From Octopus vulgaris (lineage: Eukaryota): a DNA stretch of 64,000 nucleotides. The stretch spans positions 85,436,001-85,500,000 of the forward strand of contig OX597824.1 in NCBI GenBank assembly GCA_951406725.2, read 5' to 3'. The notes below the pieces were generated by a model, which made no database searches, was not told where the DNA came from, and was given only the letters and a program-made list of their open reading frames with translations. The translations under genes were made by a program, and so were the position numbers. Of this stretch, positions 1,312-60,813 are shown piece by piece (the stretch's first letter is position 1; the number at the start of each line of letters is the position of its first letter).

Positions 1312-2799
1312 TGTACAGAAGTAGCATCCTATTATGAGCTTATTGTTCAAGGCATCGATAAAATTGTCATTTTAAAGGTATTTTGTAAGGCGAAAGAACC
1401 AATATTGTCACTAAAGACTATGAACACCAAACTTTTACACTAAAACTATTCAAAGTGTTGGATGATGTCGCGATCTACTAACAATGCGTATGTCTGAACT
1501 GTAGCGTCTGCAGCGAGGTAATAAGAAGAATAAAACCCGAGGCGACAACTATCTCAAAAACATTATCGAAAATGAATAAAGAAGTATATAAAAGAAAAAT
1601 GAACTCCAGCAGAGTAAAAGAAACTGGAATCATATAAATGTATATAATAAAATACCATCATTTGAAATAAACTTCTAACGACGAAAGATATTTATTCATG
1701 TTTCGGTCTGCCTCTCTTCTCTACGTTTGTATATGTCTGCATGTACAAAGGAACATTTGAATATTTCTGTATCCGTGTTCGCTTGTAAGTGTGTGTATGT
1801 GTGCTTCTGTGTATATAAATGTATTCATGAATGGGTATGAGTATGCGCGTGAATGAACTAGTGTATCAATTTATGCATCTTTGAAAGCACCCCAGCTACT
1901 TCTGAGTGGTATAAGTATGGCGGAATGTGGTGCATTATCGTAAAACATATACGATTACTAAGCTGTGAACATTTGTTTTAAGCTAAGTTGGGAATAATAA
2001 TATAATGGACTATACTGATAAAGGCTAATCGTCATAAAAACTTTGGGGATAAATTGAAATAAGAAACAAACTAATGTACTGTCGCCATGAAGAAATGAAA
2101 TAAAAGCGCGATAAGAAAATTGAAGAGGCGATTTAGTGAAAATTATATAAAACGAAGAAAATATACCGGAAACATTGAAACGGACAAAATGATAGCAACT
2201 ATATTGCTGTGGTGATGTGGGTGTCGGTGCTTAAAAACTTTGAAGTAAAAGAATGTAAAGCATCGCTCATGTTCAAGCGATTGTTTAGAAACATGGACAG
2301 CGCTTCTCTGTTTCAATTCATATGTAAAAATGGCGGTTGAGTTGCAGATCAGAGGGACAGAATGCCTTGAAGTACTTGGTTACGTCTCATTACGTTTCGA
2401 GTTACAATTTTGCTGAGGTTGATTTTGCCTTTTATGTTGGAAGTTCGATAAAATAAAGTACCAATCGAATACTGATTTAGTTTAAACAATAAATCCATTC
2501 CCCCAAGTTTGGAGTCTTGAGCCCGTACAAGAAATCATTATTCCTATAAGTTTATCTAATATGTACTTCAACTGTTACTTGTATTTTTTAAGATGATAAC
2601 ATGATTTAAGTGATATTGGTGGACTTCGATGTCAACCTGTGACGATCTGCCGCGACTCTCAGCGGAGGACATAAAAGCTGATTTCAGGAACTGAAGTGAC
2701 AGATATGTCAGTCAGTTGTGAGACGTAATTCGCCAACACAGGATGGTGTAGCCAATTTTAGTGGGAAATCGTATAAGGAATCGGTTTATCAATTTTTTC

Positions 2800-4150
2800 A
2801 TCCTGATTGAATGGAAAACCCCAAATGGATGCCTGCCACCGATAGTGTTTGGCCTTGGGATTTGTTGATGGACATGGCGAAGCATGGTCTCACCGGGAAA
2901 TGCGATATACTGAAGTTAAACGGCATGTCTGACCCCAAGGGATAAAGCTGCATCCTTGAAATGAAAACATTTTCACCCCTCCCGCACCCTGTAACAATGG
3001 TGGCCTCAATCAAGTGAGGCGTCAAGGACTTGATTACTAAGCGGGTCCCGTTGCACTGTTTAGGCGGAAGCAAGTTTCTGATTAGCATAATTGGGCATCC
3101 AACCTTAACCTAAGAATGTGAGGTGGAAGCCCTACTGGTTCCAATGAGTTGAGAAACTCGATAGGGTAACTGACAATGTCTTAGGGATCAGAGGTCTGGT
3201 CAATCGATTTGTAGATGCGCTCCTCACCCGGAATTCCGCTTCTGAGCTGGTCGTTGATAGCACTGACAGCTACGTTTTTGTGGGCCAGGATGGTTCTTTC
3301 ACTGAGCCAATTGATGTCTGCATAATTACTTTCCAGATTGGGGAACACTGTTTCCAAAAGATCAGAGATGGATATTTTGCCCCTATCATTCCTAGGGACC
3401 TTGCCTTCCCCAAGGGCTAAAATGTCTTCAGCAAATGCTGCAGAGCGCATGCATGTTTGTGCTTAAGGTTCCCTTTAGGGATGACAGGAAGGGTTTGCCG
3501 GAAATCTCCTGAAAGCAATAGAATTACATCACCCATAGAAGCTGTAGAATCCCTGATACCTTTCAGTGACCGGTCCAGTGCCTCAAGGGCATCCTTATTG
3601 GTCATTGTGCATTCGTCCCATACAATGAGACGGCACTGTCTAAGAACTTCAGCTTCCTCTGAACTTCTGCCAATGTTGCAAGTAAGAACCTCGGCCCTCA
3701 CCAAATGTAACGGCAGCTTGAATGCGCTGTCCTACCTCCCGGCAATAACGTAGCTGCGATTCCCGAGGAAGCAACGGCTAGCGCAATTTGTTTCTAGCGA
3801 CGAATCTTAGCGAGTATTAATTTTGTTACAAAGGATTTGCCGGTACCTCTAGCAGCATCGAGGAAACAAATGCCGCCCACCTGTCTTTCAACGGCACTGA
3901 CGACAGTTTCGTACATCAGCCTCAGATCAGGGAACAACTTCGGTTCATTTACTCTCAGGTACTCCGCAAGGCCAGAAGTAACTTTGGTGGGAGTGTGTTA
4001 ACGTCCTGTCGCAATGATGATGGCAAACCGAATGTGTTCAACGCTGCCCCACTCATTTTGAGCAGGGTATCCTCGATTTCAATCAGCGCATTGTTGTATA
4101 TCAGGTCATTGTATCCAATGTCAGCATTAGGGTACTGTTGCTGTCCCAGT
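2800..4150 (-). pseudogene. Helitron RepHel PIF1-type helicase domain, frameshifted remnant
   Basis: Walker A FLDAARGTGKSF (~3830-3870), Walker B IVWDECTM, LSGDFRQTLPV, ILAHKN, MLIRNL..CNGTRL and FPVRPCFAMSINKSQGQTL, spread over broken ORFs 3417-3704, 3181-3450 and 2798-3088. Confidence 0.92.
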
Positions 4151-11740: not shown

Positions 11741-12027
11741 ACTAGCTGAACAGGTTTCTCTCAAGGCAGCAGACTCTGAGAATATTTCTTCTTCGGTACA
11801 AAGAACATCAGATAAAGTTCAGTTTGGAGACAACCTTAAAACAGTCATTCACACTATTACGATAGAAGCTTTTGCATGAAAAAAAAAAAAAGCAAAACCC
11901 TATCGAAAGTTAGAACCTCGACTGAAATTTTGAAATACGGTGAGCCAATCTTCCCTGAATATCTCTACAAACTTCTTCATTTCTATAAAATGAGTGCAGT
12001 TCCACGAGATAGATGGGATACTACATA

Positions 12028-12510
12028 GGGCGGCGAGCTGGCAGACACGTTAGTGCGCCGGGTGAAATGCTTAGCGGTATTTCGTCTGTCGTTACGTTGT
12101 GAGTTCAAATTCCGCCGAGGTCGACTTTGCCTTTCATCCTTTCGGGGTCCATAAATTAAGTACCAGTTACGCACTGGGGTCGATGTAATCGATATAAAGA
12201 AATAGGTATTTCGTCTGTTGTTACGTTCTGAGTTCAAATTCCGCCGAGGTCGACTTTGCCTTTAATCTTTTCAAGGTCGATAAATAAAGTACCAGTTTCA
12301 CACTGGGGTCAATGTAATCGACTTAATCCCTTTGTCTGTCCTTGTTTGTCCCCTCTATGTTTAGCCCCTTGTGGGCAATGAAGAAATAAGAATCATTAGC
12401 ACACCGGGCAAAATACTTCGCGACATTTCCCCCATCTACACGTTCTGTGTTCAAATTCCACTGACTTACCCCTCCTCTGAAACTGTTGGCCTTGAGCCAA
12501 AACTTGAAAG
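12028..12510 (+). mobile_element. SINE A head-to-tail multimer (three units)
   Basis: B-box segment GTTC/GTTGTGAGTTCAAATTCC recurs at about 12100, 12230 and 12450. Confidence 0.88.
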
Positions 12511-16863: not shown

Positions 16864-17287
16864 TGTATGTATGTATGTATGTATGTATGTACATGTGTGT
16901 GTATGTGTGTGTGCGTGCGTGCGTCTGTATACGCTAACCGAAAGAAAGCTTTTGATTGTTTCACCTGGTGAGTTATCAGACTCATGAGAAAGGAAGCAAA
17001 ATTTCGAATGCATAGAAGTTTAGAAAAATACATGACTAAGCTAAACAGCGAAGAAATCGCAAACATAAAAGAAGGACGAAGATTTAAAACTACAAATTTT
17101 GCAAAAGGAATCTAAAAATCAGTGAACCCAGAGCGTAAAGACAGACGAAATACTGTTAAGCATTTCGCCCGGCGTGCTAACGTTTCTGCCAGCTCGCCAA
17201 AACAGAAAGGTTTTCTTAATCGAAAGAATAGTTAAAAGAAGCGGGTTGGTGTCTTATATTTTTTTTATATTGATAGAAATGTGTAAA

Positions 17288-17960
17288 GATGGTGAGTGGG
17301 TAGAAATCGTTTGCACGCCGAGCAAAATACTTTGTGGCATTTCGTTCATCTTTACGTTCTGAGTTCAAATTCCACCGAGGTCGAATTTGCTTTCCATCCC
17401 TGTCAGGATCGATGAAATAAGTATTAGTTAAGCACTGGCGTCGATGTAATTGACTTAACCCCTCCAACGAAATTGCTACCCTTGTGCCAAAATTTGAAAT
17501 CAATATTGACAGAAATCCGTAAGGCGGTGAGCCGGGAGAATCGATACCACGCCGAGCAAAATGTTTTACTTCATTTCGCTCGTCTTTATGCTCTGAGGTC
17601 AAATTTCAGTGAGGTTGACTTTTCCTTTCATCATTTCAGAGTCGATAAAATAAATACCAGTTGAGTACTAGGGTCGATGTAATAGACGTAGCTTCTTCCC
17701 CGAAATTATTGGTCTTGTGCTAAAATTTGAAATCCTTGATAGAAATGAAGGCGGTGATGTGGGAAACTCGTTAGCATGCCGAGCAAAATACTTAGCCGCA
17801 TTTTCGTACGTTCTGAGCTCAAAGTCCATTAAAGTTGACTTTGTCTTTCATCCTTTCGAAGTCGATAAAATAATTACCAGTTGAGCACTGGAGTCAATGT
17901 AATCAACTTAGCCCCCTCCCCTCAATTGCTAGCCTTGTACCGAAATTTGAAACCAATTTT
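17288..17960 (+). mobile_element. Tandem array of three older SINE A copies
   Basis: Units start at about 17288, 17521 and 17748, each ending in CTTGTRC.AAATTTGAAA. Confidence 0.85.
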
Positions 17961-19639
17961 GATAGAAACGTGTAAACTTGAAATATATGAAATATAGTAT
18001 AAAATATTTCATATGACACATGAAATATTTAAAATGAAGACGGCATACAATTTATGATAAAATAAAAAGTGTGTTTAGGTGTGGGGTAACGTGAATTAAA
18101 TGAATTAAACATATACATCGATCAATGTTTTTATACAATGAGATTTGCTTAACTGCTATTATTTACGCGTGTATTTGTAGTCTTTACTACAAAGATAACT
18201 TCTGTAAACAATTGTTTAAATCATGGTGAGGGATAATATGATAAAGAAAAAAATGATATAGCATAAAATATTTGATTATGCGACCCTAGAGAACGTATAT
18301 AATAAGGAAAAAAATGAAAATATTTGCTAAAAAGTCTAGTTGGACATCTCATGAGGAAGGGATTTAATGAAATAGTAAGAGTAAATATGAGATACTTGGG
18401 TGTATGTAGGAGTTGTATGTATAATAACAAAAAATAAAATAGAAGAAAAATAGAATTATATTTATTTAACTATAGTAGTGATGATAAATTGGTAGTATTT
18501 ATTTTGTTGCTAGACGTTTTCTGCAAGAAAACTGTCAGATGATATATATCATTTCTCTGAATTTCTGAGTAATGTTATAAATATGTTGTGGTTAGTAGAA
18601 GTGATGTGTATGAAAGCTAAAATAATTATGTTGTAGTTGAGAAGTAGCAGAAGAGCGACTAGGAATTTAGTTACAAGATAGATATGAACGCTGTTAAAAT
18701 TATCAAATTATAATCAGCTGAATTTGAGAACATGATTTAGAATCAGAAATAGGTTGGCTACTTAAGTTTGAGGAGAAATAAGATCAATTTCTAAAAGCAA
18801 CATAAGATGAAAATTTTAAAATTGTAATCACACAGTACGTTGTCGGGAATTTGAGTTAACATTAGTGAAACATGTTATAAATGTATAAAATATATGTTTT
18901 ATAATTTAAAAGGTGAAATTACCACGTGCTTATCAAAGGAGAGAGTAGAATGATTATAAAAAGCTTGATTATATGAAGATGCTGTCAAGATGTAACTAAA
19001 TACATTGGAAAGCATTCCTTAGGCGATCATTCTAAATGGTGCTTGTGAGGAAGGAATCAAATATATGAAAGTCATGGTCTTAGTCTTGTTATCCAAGTGT
19101 ATTTTGAAACCGATTTAGTTGTGACGTGACATTTAAACCAATGTTAGACTTAGGAGAAAGGAGTACGTATTAAAGGGGTTAATATGGCTAGACATAATAC
19201 TTGAGGTAATAATTGTACACTGAGTGTGTAGCTGTATTCCGTTTCCGAATGCAAGGGTCGATATGCTCGTCAGATATTGAATTAACTGTGTAGGTATTTC
19301 GGCTCCTTACCAGCGATACAAGCAATGCAGGTGACTTCTGTCCAATAACACAAAATTATTTGAATCAGATATCTCTGTCAGTTTCAACGCGTGATCTTAT
19401 TGAGGAGAGGTTTCCCACTGTATTAGACATGCCACTCGTCTACTGCCTTGAGTCAGATGTAACACCACGCTTTCTCTTTGGTAGCTAGTTAATATTCTTG
19501 AAGAAAGAGTGAACCGTGGTCAGCTGATACCTTCCCAAATCTCCCCAGTATTAGATCTATCTTCATTCTCATGCAGCGTTCACCTTCCTTCTCTACAAGC
19601 AGATGTACTGACGACACATATCTATACGCTTTTATTCTT

Positions 19640-20199: not shown

Positions 20200-21201
20200 A
20201 TCATACTGTATTTTCTGTTGCCATAGTTGTGTCAGAATCTCAATTCCACGCTTGTAACATTTGGCGGGTTTACAGGCAAAAAAACTCCATGCACCCGTTT
20301 TCAATTTCATCTACATTTTTGAGACTCCATCCGTGCGGAAAATGAACCATGGCTCTGAAACGCTAGTAATCTGATAGTGCAAAGTTTGGACTGTAGGTAA
20401 GGTGAGGTAGCACTTCCATCCTTTCAAGTTCCTCAAGTTTGCGTTTGGTTACATTGGCAGTGTGTGCTGGAGCACTGTCAAGCTATAAGAGAGCACGTCT
20501 TCGATTGACAAATGCCAGGTAGCGGGTTTCCAAAACATCACAGCAGTTGTTGAGTATGTAGGTAAGCGTTTATAGCATGGACGACTGGGACGAGCTCAAA
20601 GTGCAAAACCCCTTTGAAATTCCTCCAAACACACATGACCTTCTCTTCAAACCACTCTTCTTTGACAACTGATTCTGAAGCTTAGCTGGAAGAACAAAGT
20701 CATTAATTTCTCTTATTAGGATTACGAATATAGATTTATATTTCATCCCCAGTTACAATTCGACGCCAAGGACGGGCATCTCGAGGATTTGCCAGGAGCT
20801 GTTTGCAAATATTCGCACGTCGTTGAGCCTGGTCGTTAATCTGTTCACGAAGAGCTTCTCCACACCGTCTGTCACGAGGCCAATCTGGAAGTGTCGATCG
20901 ATGGTGTTTCGTGAAGACCAAGTCCTGTCGACAATGTGTGTATGATTGAACTCGGCTGGTGTTCAACCATTTCAAACAAGTTCTCATCTTCCACAGAAGG
21001 TGTCCCTGAACTTGGTTTGTCTTCGAGGCTGGTGTCACCTTCCTTGAAACGTATGAACCCGTTTTGTGCTACACGTTCGTTGACAGTTCCTGGGCCTTCT
21101 ACATCATTAATTTATTTGGCCTCTGCTCTTGCACTAAGTCCTTTTTTTTTTGTCATAGGTAGTGTAAAATGGCTCTAATTGTAATTTTTTTTACCACTCA
21201 T
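20200..21201 (-). pseudogene. Decayed mariner transposase (Mos1/SETMAR-like)
   Basis: N-terminal RFKEGDTSLEDKP, WRRIVTGDE and YSPNFALSDY motifs, with multiple frameshifts. Confidence 0.88.
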
Positions 21202-30273: not shown

Positions 30274-32070
30274 CACTGGTCAACAAAATTAAATATATTA
30301 TACTCATTATGAATGCAAATCAGCTTTTTGAGACTAATTTTTTATGCTGATTTCAAACTTTCATTCCATTTGTATGCAGCAAGTATCAGTTTTTCAGTAG
30401 ATACATGCAAATATTTACATATTTGTATATATGAAATCATTAACGTAATAAATAAGCACATGTTACTTTTAGAAAGAAAATTAGTTTATTGAGTTCTACA
30501 AAGAGTGAATACACAAAAAAATAGGTCAGACAAAACATCAAAGTTAGAACAGAGTTAGAAACATTGTGATTTGGATTTCCTGTGGTGTTCCTGATCTGTT
30601 TGATCACGGTAAAGTGTCCAGCAGTAGTTAGCCAGCATGGTGTCATTCCAGAAGCCTTGGTACCGTTTCTCTATAGCACTAATGTCCGGGTGAAATCTTT
30701 CACCATGTTCGTCAGACACTGCTCCAAGGTTATCTGCATAGAAATCCAGATGAGAGTCCAAGAAGTGAACCCATTGTTGAGTAACATTTCAGAAGATTCT
30801 TGATGCTTTGTAGTCTATTGACTTCTTGTTGCCCAAGAAATTCTCACAGATCCAATTGAAAGTAGTCCAGGCAGGCAATTCCAGTTCATCCAGTGTTGTC
30901 TTGAAGTTGACATCTTTGAGTACTTCTCTAATTTGGGGTCCGACAAAGATACTTTCTTTCAACTTCGCCTGTGTGAATTTGGGAAACTTTTCTACAATAT
31001 ATTCAAAACCTCTTACATTTCTCTTTATAAACCGTTTCATCAGTCCAAACCGTTTCATCAGTGCAAAGGAGGCAATAGGACATTACAGGATCTACAAGAG
31101 GTGCATTTTTGACGCTAGACAGTTCTAGCTGGTATGATGTTCTTGTCTGCCAGTTTGATTCCGAATATTGTCTGTCAGTTGCCCGGCACAGACACAAAAA
31201 ACAACAGTAATTTGTGAAACCTGACCGCATTACCATTAACATTCCAATTACTTTTAAATCTCCACATATTTTCCATGAGTATCTTTCAAAGGCAATGGTA
31301 TGAAGTAAAAGTTCCATATTCTCATATGGTTCATGAACGGAGTGTACAATAGGAATGTGGGGCTTCAAATTACCATTATGGAGAAGTACAGTTTTTAAAC
31401 TTCGTTTTAAAGAGTCAATAAACAAATGTCACTCTGCAGGATAAACATTTAGTGATAAACATTCGAAAAGTCCATCGATGTTACTGCAAAAGTAAAGCGG
31501 GCCTTCAACAGAAAAACACGTTTGTAGAACCATATTTCTCTGCTATAAATAAGTTATACGAACATTGTGCTCTAGCAGATACTTCACCTTCAGTCTTGAT
31601 GCCAACAGTTCTGCTTTATGTTTTGAGAGGGATAGGTCTGTGATGTTTCAGTACCATCATCTGGTGGAACTGGAATTGTCAGGCTTTCATTGTGAGTCAC
31701 AGGTCTCATTGCAGAATCCAAATTGGGATACACAATTTTGTGTTTATTCTTCATAGAAAATCCTGTGACATTTACTTTGCAAAAATAAGTCATTAAAATT
31801 GTCTTTCGGTTCCCTCCATATTGGAATGGCAAAAGGTATGGACTTCTTATTGAACCAGTCACGTAAGCCATTTGAGCAAGCTGAGCAGATAAAATGTGGT
31901 GCCCATAACTTGTCCTGATCTCCAAGAGGACAGTCAAAAAGTATAGCTTAGAAATTCTTTTGATCTCTGCTGTTATTGTACGTTTTTGAGCTTTTACAAT
32001 AAATTGTCCACAGACATAACAAAACACACCAGGACGATTTCTACACTGTCTTGATATTTTTAACACCGTA
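30274..32070 (-). mobile_element. CMC/Chapaev3-like DNA transposon with a disrupted transposase
   Basis: CRNRPGVFCYVCG, YFCKVNVTG, FIDSLKRSLKTVLLHNGN, ICGDLKV, YCCFLC, LGAVSDEHGERFHPDI and RYQGFWNDTMLANYCW motifs; terminus TAA|CACTGGTCAACA at 30274; the other terminus was not found. Confidence 0.75.
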
Positions 32071-32307
32071 AAACTAGTAAGGAAATAGATACAAACGGTT
32101 ATACTTATACTGAATTTGTGATGATGAAATATTTCATCAGACCAATTATGACTGGACAGTTTGAAGTGTTGAAATATCTATTTTATCAGACAAAGCTCTA
32201 CGTGATGTCAAAATGCCAGTACTCTCTCTTTCCCTCTCTCTTCCTTCCGCTTTCTGTCTTTCTCCTACTCTCCTTGTATCTCTCTCTCTCTCCTACTCTC
32301 CTTGTAT

Positions 32308-42044: not shown

Positions 42045-42155
42045 CAGGGTGATTCAAAAGTCGCCATACAATTTATTTTTTTATAAGAAACAGTTTTTTT
42101 ATTTAACTGTTTCTTATAAAAATAATTTTTTCCTATGTACGGTGACTTTTGAATC

Positions 42156-42161
<6 letters not shown>
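42045..42161. mobile_element. Tc1/mariner-type palindromic MITE
   Basis: TIR CAGGGTGATTCAAAAGTCRCCRTACA and its reverse complement, embedded in (TA)n. Confidence 0.85.
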
Positions 42162-42200
<39 letters not shown>

Positions 42201-42201
<1 letters not shown>

Positions 42202-42604
42202 AGTAAATAAATGGCACAGCGAAGCACTGATATTTACTGGAAAATAGCGAACGTAACGTGATAAATACGACGCTAATGTATAGCTTCACTGTGCATGCAC
42301 TAGCAAAGACGCGTATGTGCAACAAACATGAAAAAAATTGTCTTACCTCGAGGAAGAACATCTGAAAAATGAAATACCTAGAAATGGATAATGTGGTACC
42401 GGTTTCAGATTCTTCAAAATACATCTGCCAACATATATTTGATTTATCCTCATCAGCCACATATACCTCGACGATATTTCAAATGTTGCCACATCCATGC
42501 CAGTACACTCGACTGAACGCCAAAACGTTGTCAGAACGAGAACAGTGAAGAAGTTCGCTATTTTCCAGTAAATATCAGTGCTTCGTTGTGCCATTTATTT
42601 ACTT
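42201..42604. mobile_element. About 400-bp element with 52-bp inverted termini carrying a hammerhead ribozyme
   Basis: AAGTAAATAAATGGCACAGCGAAGCACTGATATTTACTGGAAAATAGCGAAC at 42201-52 versus its reverse complement at 42553-604 (1 mismatch). Confidence 0.88.
42391..42462 (-). ncRNA. Type I hammerhead ribozyme with an intact consensus core
   Basis: ATGTGG-CTGATGA-GGAT...ATCT-GAAA-CCGG-TA-CCACAT: 6-bp stem I, stem II, palindromic CCGG loop 3, GUA cleavage triplet. Confidence 0.85.
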
Positions 42605-42666
42605 TTATGTATAATTTTACCCTCACGGGCTATCCTTTACTGGAGAACAATACTCTCGTATTGCAT

Positions 42667-42722
<56 letters not shown>

Positions 42723-43291: not shown

Positions 43292-43606
43292 CTATTCTCA
43301 ATTCATTTTATATATAGGTAATCTCAGCTGCAACGATCAGTGAGAGACGATTTAGGTAAATTTCTTATATCTCTTTTAATTTATAATAACTATTAATCTT
43401 TCTTCACAACCGTTGGATGCAGAGTCTTCTGATTAATAGTTGAGAGAAAGACAAAAGTAATTTTTCGTGCAGAAACAATACCACGACAACCAGAGAAATC
43501 AATCAACCATGAAATATCTGTTCAATATTGTTGAGTGAAGTTAAACTGTGCTTTGAACGTTTGAATATCATACATCCAGTTTCTTTTTGATAATTCATTA
43601 TCCTTA

Positions 43607-44010
43607 AGGCGGCGAGCTGACAGAATCGTTAGCACGCCGGGCGAAATGCTTAGCGGTATTTCGTCTGCCGTTACGTTTTGAGTTCAAATCCTACCGAGGT
43701 GGACTTTGCCTTTCATCCTTTCGGGGTCGATTAAATAAGTACCAGTCATGCACTGGGGTCGATATAGTCGACTTAATCCGCTTGTCTGTCGTTGTTGTCC
43801 TCTCTGTGTTTAGCGCCTTGTGTGTAATAAAGAAATAGGTATTTCGTCTGTTCGTCTGTTTTTACGTTCTGAGTTCAAATCTTGCCGAGGTGAACTTTGC
43901 CTTTCATCCTTTCGGGGTCGATTAAATAAGTACCAGTTGCGTACTGGGGTCAATCTAATCGACTGGTCCCTACCTCAAAATTTCGGATCTTGCGCCTAGA
44001 GTAGGAAAGA
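43607..44010 (+). mobile_element. Dimeric SINE A inserted as a single unit
   Basis: 17-bp TSD ATAATTCATTATCCTTA at 43590-606 and 44011-27. Confidence 0.92.
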
Positions 44011-44164
44011 ATAATTCATTATCCTTATTATTGTTATCGTTTCAAAAGTTACTGCTACCAGCGTTTCTATTCGTTTATCAAAGAACTCATGTTCTGTTTT
44101 GAGTTCTTGAATCAGTCTTAAGATGATTTACAGAGTGAAAGTTCCAATTCTTTAATTTCACCAG

Positions 44165-57632: not shown

Positions 57633-58672
57633 ATGACAGATCTATCGGACTTTCAAAGAGGTCAAATTGCTGGTGCCCGTATAGCAGGCGCTAGCGTAAC
57701 GAAAACAGCTGAAATGTTTGGCATATCAAGAAGTGCTGTCTCGAAAATAATTACAGCCTTTGAGAAAGAGGGAAAAACTCGTCAAAACAAAACTCCGGAA
57801 GAAACTAAAACTTTTTGATAGGGACCCTCGGACTCTTACACGAATTATTAGAAATGATCACAAAAGTACAGGTCCCAAAATTACTGCAGAGTTTAATGAC
57901 CAGCTCGAGAACCCAGTTTCCACAAAAACCGTTCGCTAGGAGCTGCACAAAGCCGGATTTCGCGGGAGGGCTGCAATCAGAAAACCACTACTTTCAAAAA
58001 CAAACGTTGCAAAGCGTTTAGAGTGGAGTAAAATCCTATAGAATTGGTCCCTAGAGCAGTGGAAGAATGTTATTTTCTTGGACGAGTCATCATTTACCTT
58101 ATTTCCAACCACCGGCCGAGTATACGTGTGGAGACAGCCAAAAGAAGCATTTGACTCAAACTGCTTTCTTCCAACTGTTAAACAGGGAAGAGGATCTGTG
58201 ATGATCTAGGGGCCATTTCTTGGAAATCCCACGGCCCAATGGTTTCCCTTCATGGCAGAATTAATAATCAAGACTTTTTAAGCATTATATCTGATCAAAT
58301 TAATCTGATCAAATTCATCCTATGGTTGCAGAACTATTTCTGGAGGGAAACGCAATCTTTCAGGATGATAATGCACCAATTCACACAGCTAAAGTTGTTA
58401 CTGAATGACACGAGGAATATTCTAGTGAAGTTGAACATCTTATCTGGCCACCATAGTCCCCAGATCTCAATATTATTGAACATTTATGATGCATTTTAGA
58501 AAAACAAGTAAGGAGTCGATATCCACCACCATCATCACTACAAGAACTGGAGACTGTTTTAGCTGAAGAATGGACAAAAATTCCTTTGGAAACAATTCAA
58601 ACTTTGTACGAGTCCATAATTCGTAGAATTCAAGCTGCATTTACTGCCAAATGCGGTCCTGTCCAATATTAA
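57633..58672 (+). pseudogene. Tc1-family transposase pseudogene
   Basis: MTDLSDFQRGQIAGARIAGAS, WKNVIFLDESSF and FQDDNAPIH-..-SPDLNIIE with 36 codons between the catalytic D and E; stops and frameshifts. Confidence 0.93.
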
Positions 58673-59802: not shown

Positions 59803-59995
59803 AGTTTGTGCTGCTATTTCTAGCAAGTCGAGCGACTGAGTAACGAACGTTTCCACATTAGCTCGATTGATCGGATTAGAATGTTCATGTTGTGATGCCT
59901 AGTTTTAATCTGTCAAAACTACATCGAGACAACTTCTATACAGATTCCAGATTGCTTCGTTCTATAAGTCTTCTGATGTAGGTGTATTGTATATA

Positions 59996-60230
59996 TATTT
60001 CTTAACTACCCACAAGGGGCTAAACATAGAGGGAACAAACAAGGACAGACAAAGGGATTAAATCGATCACATCGACCCCAGTGCGTAACTGGTACTTAAT
60101 TTATCGACCCCGAAAGGATGAAAGGCAAAGTCGACCTCGGCGGAATTTGAACTCAGAACACTTAACGGCAGACGAAATACGGCTATGCATTTCGCCCGGC
60201 GTGCTAACGTTTCTGCCAGCTCGCCGCCCT
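59996..60230 (-). mobile_element. Young SINE A
   Basis: 15-bp TSD GGTGTATTGTATATA at 59981-95 and 60231-45. Confidence 0.93.
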
Positions 60231-60813
60231 GGTGTATTGTATATAGTACACCAGCAAGCTCACTTGCTATGTTGCTTTGGGGAAACATTTGTAGAATGGA
60301 TTTCATTCTTGTTGATCTGAAAATGGCAAATTAAGTGATTCCCAGAAAAATTTACAACTCATATAGTTTGTCAAATATGACACTCGGTAATATCAGCAGA
60401 ATGAAATGTCGCCTTTCTGCAAATAAATTAAATCCCTGTGCTGCAGTATGTATTGTATAGTTACTATATTTCGTACATTTGATACAGTCCAATGCATAGA
60501 GATAAATAAATAATAAATAAACAACACATAATGGATAATGTAATAGAAGTAATGTAACGCAGAACAGACAATATAAGAAATAATATATTATTTTGCTTAA
60601 TCACTTGTCGTGCACGATGGTGCTATGAAATTGTGCTTGGGCCCATGGACTGGATGTTCAGTGATCGAAACTACGCTTTACGAAGAAATGGGTGTTCTTT
60701 TCAATGTTTGTACATCGAAACTGAGTTTTCTACAAATATACCAACCAAATACATATTCCTGGAGGAGTTGGTATGAATTTGTCAAGAGGGTCACTAACTG
60801 ACCGGAGTATACC

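Follow-up and report, generated by a model that had tools for sequence, protein, structure and literature searches.

What kind of mobile element is a short, noncoding stretch of octopus DNA that has the inverted arms of a MITE and carries a hammerhead ribozyme motif, and how did it acquire those arms? The question arose in a 64,000-nt stretch of Octopus vulgaris DNA (the window, within which all positions given here are numbered). We consider it probable that positions 42192–42669 are a dispersed copy of a high-copy hammerhead repeat, likely a non-LTR retrozyme with an estimated unit of ~430 nt, and that this copy was likely put into a (TA)n microsatellite by a Penelope-like reverse transcriptase (RT) and endonuclease, the arms likely being a by-product of that insertion.

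The order along the copy is (TA)n, arm, body with hammerhead, inverted arm, 56-bp tail and (TA)n. The (TA)n microsatellites read in the sequence at 42160–42191 and 42670–42721 form the left and right insertion flanks. The left arm (42192–42252, minus strand) is the tail-less 3' end of the unit on the ribozyme strand, the body (42253–42555, minus strand) is noncoding and predicted by folding to give a rod-like RNA with the hammerhead at its tip, and the right arm (42553–42613, plus strand) is an inverted copy of the unit 3' end. Body and inverted arm overlap by 3 nt (GTT, 42553–42555), as relatives leave after 42555 and the arm starts at 42553. The near-perfect 52-bp inverted arms claimed in the first-pass annotation were confirmed, with 51 of 52 bases identical between 42201–42252 and 42553–42604, and extended arms (42192–42252 and 42553–42613) agreed at 57 of 61. 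The claimed boundary at these 52-bp termini was wrong: the element continues 56 bp beyond the right arm to 42669, where (TA)n begins. This tail (42614–42669, plus strand), assigned from the depth of relatives and folded into three small hairpins, is present on one side only, so that the copy is asymmetric, the left arm abutting (TA)n directly whereas the tail separates the right arm from (TA)n. The GC content of the element is 0.37. No long direct repeat (LTR) was found inside it and no second copy in the 64-kb window. A target duplication of fixed length cannot be read owing to the (TA)n on both flanks.

The claimed type I hammerhead core with a GUA site was recovered by a type I descriptor on the minus strand (42462–42391), the only match on both strands of the window; 60 simulated windows with matching dinucleotide composition gave none. 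The order of its parts is a 6-bp stem I, CUGAUGA, stem II, GAAA, C-CG-G, UA and stem I'. Stem II has 4 bp plus a long distal hairpin, and its first pair is G-U or A-U rather than the conserved G-C. With GUA as triplet, the hammerhead consensus predicts self-cleavage between 42397 and 42396 on the minus strand. Rfam reported no hammerhead at the gathering score and none among 13 matches up to E 10, and thus the call rests on the descriptor together with the covariation described below. A palindromic CCGG loop 3 had also been proposed; the palindrome is present (as the 6-nt ACCGGU), whereas the "loop 3" is a single C-G pair closing 2 nt. In a pairing scheme, two hammerheads can share a 6-bp stem III formed by ACCGGU, all pairs being standard ones (duplex energy of the palindrome −8.3 kcal/mol), and a double hammerhead formed through a palindromic helix III has been proposed (Cervera and de la Pena 2014, PMC4209133).

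Relatives were sought as contigs of public sequencing runs at 80% likeness. Four of the 24 listed runs were used (X1, X2, X6 and X11, organism codes A, B, D and A); 20 of the 24 listed rows hold a small share of the element words. None of the 24 is recorded as RNA, and as the RNA status of X11 is a guess, this run carries no information on expression. Matching contigs numbered 1105 (X1), 867 (X2), 352 (X6) and 12 (X11) and covered 29 of 29 bins in every run, the complete element being covered in contigs of three public runs as a high-copy family. Note that summed depth is not copy number and only "high-copy" is claimed. The tail has a depth resembling that of the body in X1, X2 and X6 (~98,000 versus 45,000–174,000 in X1), whereas single joints have depths of 26–44, which indicates that arm, body and tail all belong to one high-copy family. 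One X1 piece bridges arm and tail. The hammerhead has a lower X1 depth (6,000–23,000) than the 3' body (45,000–174,000) and is partly deleted by two joints; contigs link it to both flanks (records 2, 4 and 5 of X1, and 10, 13 and 14 of X11). Copies lacking the hammerhead had been named beforehand as evidence of a chance nested insertion, which would count against a ribozyme-bearing retroelement. Some single copies do lack it, whereas the family as a whole covers the motif and keeps its pairing. Pattern scans for the arm or the hammerhead gave no loci in viral contigs, metagenome contigs or prokaryote genomes. The commonest difference between 42192–42672 and its relatives was C>T (11 places versus five G>A in X1; not significant), which corresponds to G for A on the ribozyme strand of the window copy and could be drift or an imprint of A-to-I editing.

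The minus strand, which bears the hammerhead, is under structural constraint. The variants analyzed were 40 of 56 rows listed, at 37 places, of which 33 lie in the body (42253–42555) and the four outside were dropped. Three places had two variant letters, and only the more frequent one entered the analysis; of the minor letters left out, two break a pair. In the hammerhead-constrained minus-strand fold, 19 of the 33 variant places are paired, and two break a pair versus 13.1 expected (none of 20,000 random placements was as low). Double changes were found at three pairs (P 0.02): 42394/42459 and 42395/42458, both in stem I, and 42297/42506, in the long rod. Without the constraint, seven pairs break (P 0.009) and two double changes remain (P 0.13, not significant). 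The plus strand gave no pairing signal (eight broken versus 7.8 expected). None of the 11 variant places in the motif falls in the 17 core positions (P 0.04, among the 40 of 56 rows listed). As the variants are unphased and linked within subfamilies, all these P values overstate independence. Folding gave z scores of −2.8 and −3.4 for the minus strand of the body and −1.0 for the plus strand, and for the inferred circle of ~430 nt none of 60 shuffles folded as well (z −4.5).

Are the inverted arms the termini of this family? Junctions were counted in 32 of 2358 pieces, 24 of 269 loose ends and the eight joints listed. The junction of the left arm with the body was spanned by 10 of the 32 listed pieces, four of them with at least 31 letters on each side, and that of the right arm with the body by none. 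Six listed body pieces stop at 42545–42555, and relatives match the body to 42555 and then depart into a 12-nt linker and the tail. The right arm has a depth of 354,000 in X1, which drops ~20-fold to 16,000 just inside it; loose ends preceding this arm resemble the reverse of the left junction, indicating that the arm contigs are mostly ordinary 3' ends. With the tail beyond the right arm, and with the right junction absent from the 32 listed pieces, no fixed pair of terminal inverted repeats was found for the family.

Five of the eight listed joints connect the body to arm or tail elsewhere (at 42231, 42256, 42339, 42366 and 42374); three of these are weak, their shorter side having fewer than 30 letters, and four could be internal deletions. 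The remaining listed joints are two internal deletions and one going back. At the 42339 joint, seen in X1 and X6, the letters match the reverse of 42260–42274 (14 of 15 by eye), giving a longer inverted arm that deletion could not produce. The inverted 5' piece thus varies in length across the window junction and the five other joints, two of which are well supported. We conclude that the inverted arm is likely specific to the window copy and a by-product of one insertion. The window's own junction may nevertheless occur in contigs beyond the 32 of 2358 listed. Note that the body ends at 42339, 42366 and 42374 sit 20–55 nt 3' of the predicted cut, as expected of self-cleaved linear templates, and are too few to count.

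The length of the repeating unit came from contigs that continue behind 42555. In six contigs of X1 and four of X2, a 12-nt stretch follows and leads into the tail end in reverse (15 of 18 letters matching by eye). In X11, record 11 returns from 42549 to 42224 across 108 intervening letters, where 105–106 would be expected for the rest of the arm, the tail, the linker and six body bases. Tail and body start are thus 12 nt apart and head to tail, implying a unit of ~430 nt. The junction was present in contigs of X1, X2 and X11; the window copy is solo, and no array of two full units was found among the contigs. As the runs are guessed to be DNA, the junction indicates tandem DNA rather than a circle, and the X11 go-back joint may likewise be genomic tandem DNA. 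Loose ends behind 42517 have mixed A-rich continuations (four contigs in X1 and six in X2; agreement 0.74 and 0.55), possibly from other subfamilies or longer forms and possibly a route to an autonomous partner.

The element lacks any open reading frame (ORF) with RT and GIY-YIG endonuclease and is thus not an autonomous Penelope-like element. Its longest frame (95 codons, on the ribozyme strand) is open at 0.0012 by shuffling, a value for one frame picked afterwards. This frame matched no Pfam family and none of 1.84 billion proteins, and it is interrupted in the family by indels of 1, 5 and 7 nt; it was rejected as a protein remnant.

In its type I hammerhead, lack of an ORF, GC content (37%) and strongly self-paired RNA, the element is like the non-LTR retrozymes described by Cervera and de la Pena 2020 (PMC7229834) and in a preprint by Li, Clavereau and Pollet 2026 (10.64898/2026.07.22.740005). 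It also shares with them solo copies, a proposed Penelope origin and, as far as the junction in the contigs implies, a unit of a few hundred bases arranged head to tail. The inferred unit of ~430 nt exceeds the 170–400 nt first described and lies within the 51–972 bp of the later survey. It differs from these retrozymes in its long branched stem II and in being a solo copy with an inverted end and a tail, and is known here from its sequence. Penelope elements were proposed in the same two papers as mobilizers of retrozymes, from shared motifs and hammerheads, co-occurrence and trees.

Penelope-like elements provide the second set of likenesses. Craig et al. 2021 (PMC8557442) describe for them inverted, 5'-truncated copies that give flanking inverted repeats, together with (TA)n targets and a tail of 30–40 bp on one side. 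In Frangieh et al. 2024 (PMC11167929), a purified protein of the Penelope type cleaved the two strands of AT-rich DNA and extended both, from two RNA start sites that define the tail; ribozyme cleavage was not required for its insertion in vitro. The present element shares with this group its type I hammerhead, in which helix III is palindromic, the inverted 5' piece with terminal inverted repeats, the one-sided tail and a target that is (TA)n or AT-rich (PMC8557442, PMC11167929, PMC4209133). In contrast, it has no RT or GIY-YIG ORF, its tail has 56 bp versus 30–40 bp, its insertion ends lie 205 and ~260 nt past the cut site, and its hammerhead has a full 6-bp stem I and is not minimal. Passages of PMC5753468 and PMC11722881 contained nothing decisive for the comparison.

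Nonautonomous DNA elements (MITEs and CryptonV) are likewise short and noncoding, with inverted arms and microsatellite flanks. In the present element, by contrast, the arms appear not to be fixed, family sequence extends past one of them, the RNA structure is strand-specific and some junctions are head to tail. Twin priming of L1 produces an inverted 5' piece with a small loss and a short overlap at the junction. The element resembles such products in its inverted 5' piece, the 12 nt lost and the 3-nt overlap, and differs in having no poly(A) tail, no readable target duplication and a second priming place that is apparently fixed (the tail end). The first-pass reading of a nonautonomous, retrozyme-like or Penelope-derived element that is a MITE only in look thus fits the relatives, whereas its picture of a family with 52-bp termini does not, and it had missed the 56-bp tail and the head-to-tail unit.

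An insertion route can be proposed on this basis. Tandem copies would be transcribed on the minus strand and the transcripts cut by their hammerheads, probably as double hammerheads formed through the ACCGGU palindrome, and the monomers may circularize. A Penelope-type enzyme would then nick both strands of (TA)n and prime at two RNA sites, the arm end and the tail end, so that the outer end of the left arm would mark the first priming site and that of the tail the second. A long cDNA (body, 364 nt) and a short cDNA (tail plus arm, 117 nt) would be joined back to back with the 3-nt overlap, which would create the inverted arms and the one-sided tail with a loss of 12 nt at the junction. Two types of end, 56 nt apart, are found in the family and both abut (TA)n; tail-less ends at the arm (mirror place 42613) meet (TA)n in 15 contigs of X1, three of X6 and one of X11. 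The 9-mer TTTACTGGA occurs in the arm (42233 and 42564) and in the tail (42636), at a similar distance inside each of the two ends, and is a possible recognition motif for two start sites.

The body extends 159 nt through the intact cut site, indicating that the template was a circle or an uncut multimer and not a self-cleaved linear monomer. A more specific version of the route is that one cDNA ran once around a retrozyme circle of 430 nt and stopped 12 nt before the second start, while the other was made from tail and arm, with back-to-back joining of the two. We put this version forward tentatively, with the balance of likelihood against it. On a one-unit circle, ending 12 nt short of the second start is the expected outcome; with stops at random along the unit it is a ~3% event (in one copy). 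If true and general, it would be direct structural evidence that Penelope machinery mobilizes animal retrozyme circles, and it would explain the MITE look of such elements. A short ORF-less family with Penelope marks (inversion, optional tail and (TA)n) offers many natural insertions for testing both the borrowing of Penelope machinery and a circular template, and the copy illustrates a route by which repeat annotators could mislabel such copies as MITEs. The individual parts have all been described already, and the copy probably adds a further example to a known kind, the retrozyme; neither the family nor any retrozyme with an inverted end was found described in the literature covered, which excluded Repbase, most subscription journals and the supplements of the 2026 preprint.

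Three other explanations were weighed. The copy could represent one end of an autonomous Penelope-like element, truncated and inverted (a pseudo-LTR and the start of its ORF), with the short head-to-tail form a minor deletion product. There is precedent in an anole Penelope-type element whose ORF begins at the hammerhead and whose insertions end within that ORF (PMC11167929), and the open 95-codon frame (0.0012, picked afterwards) and the mixed A-rich loose ends behind 42517 would be accommodated. We regard this origin as unlikely, as the frame lacks Pfam and protein matches and is broken by the 1-, 5- and 7-nt indels, the short head-to-tail junction is present in three runs, and the whole body is structured with its long-range pairing kept. 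Somewhat less likely again is a subfamily with fixed inverted termini that moves as DNA (MITE or CryptonV-like and microsatellite-targeting) with the hammerhead as captured cargo. The 51/52 identity of the arms would be natural for such a subfamily, and microsatellite targeting has been reported for CryptonV families (PMC8869645); the pieces listed were 32 of 2358, and internal deletion could account for four of the five other joints. Against it stand 56 bp of family sequence outside the right arm, the right junction spanned by none of the 32 listed pieces while relatives go into linker and tail, one copy with a longer arm, and pairing that is kept on one strand only with G-U tolerated. Very improbable, and largely refuted, is a hammerhead-like motif arisen by chance or a hammerhead fragment nested by chance in an unrelated MITE. 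The silence of Rfam and the lower depth over the motif would fit, whereas the simulated windows gave no match in 60, stem I shows double changes and contigs join the motif to both flanks.

Three further identities were rejected. The anatomy of DIRS-type elements includes inverted repeats, a right extension and an internal complementary region; here no internal match to the tail was longer than 7 nt. Helentron-type ends were considered for the arms, which are too long for them, and the ribozyme would be left without explanation. Octopus Naiad elements were rejected as partners, as element words were absent or at chance level in the PMC8557442 supplement, and Naiads are described in that paper as without canonical hammerheads.

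The window is microsatellite-rich animal DNA, with dispersed repeats of an octopus-like kind. Directly left of the putative retrozyme copy, between CA and TA repeats, lies a 117-bp MITE-like element (42045–42161) with inverted ends of ~26 bp (23 of 26 match), which is presumably Tc1/mariner-like. Open frames at 31003–32177, 20736–21068 and 58182–58499, which resemble transposase remnants, matched no Pfam family at E 0.01. Broken PIF1 helicase frames on the minus strand at 2798–3731 (PF05970, E 4.8e-22; PF21530, E 2e-06) are probably a Helitron remnant. About 29 segments (e.g., 12000–12500, 17250–18000, 43600–44050 and 59950–60250) are dispersed SINE-like repeats with up to 13 self-matches.
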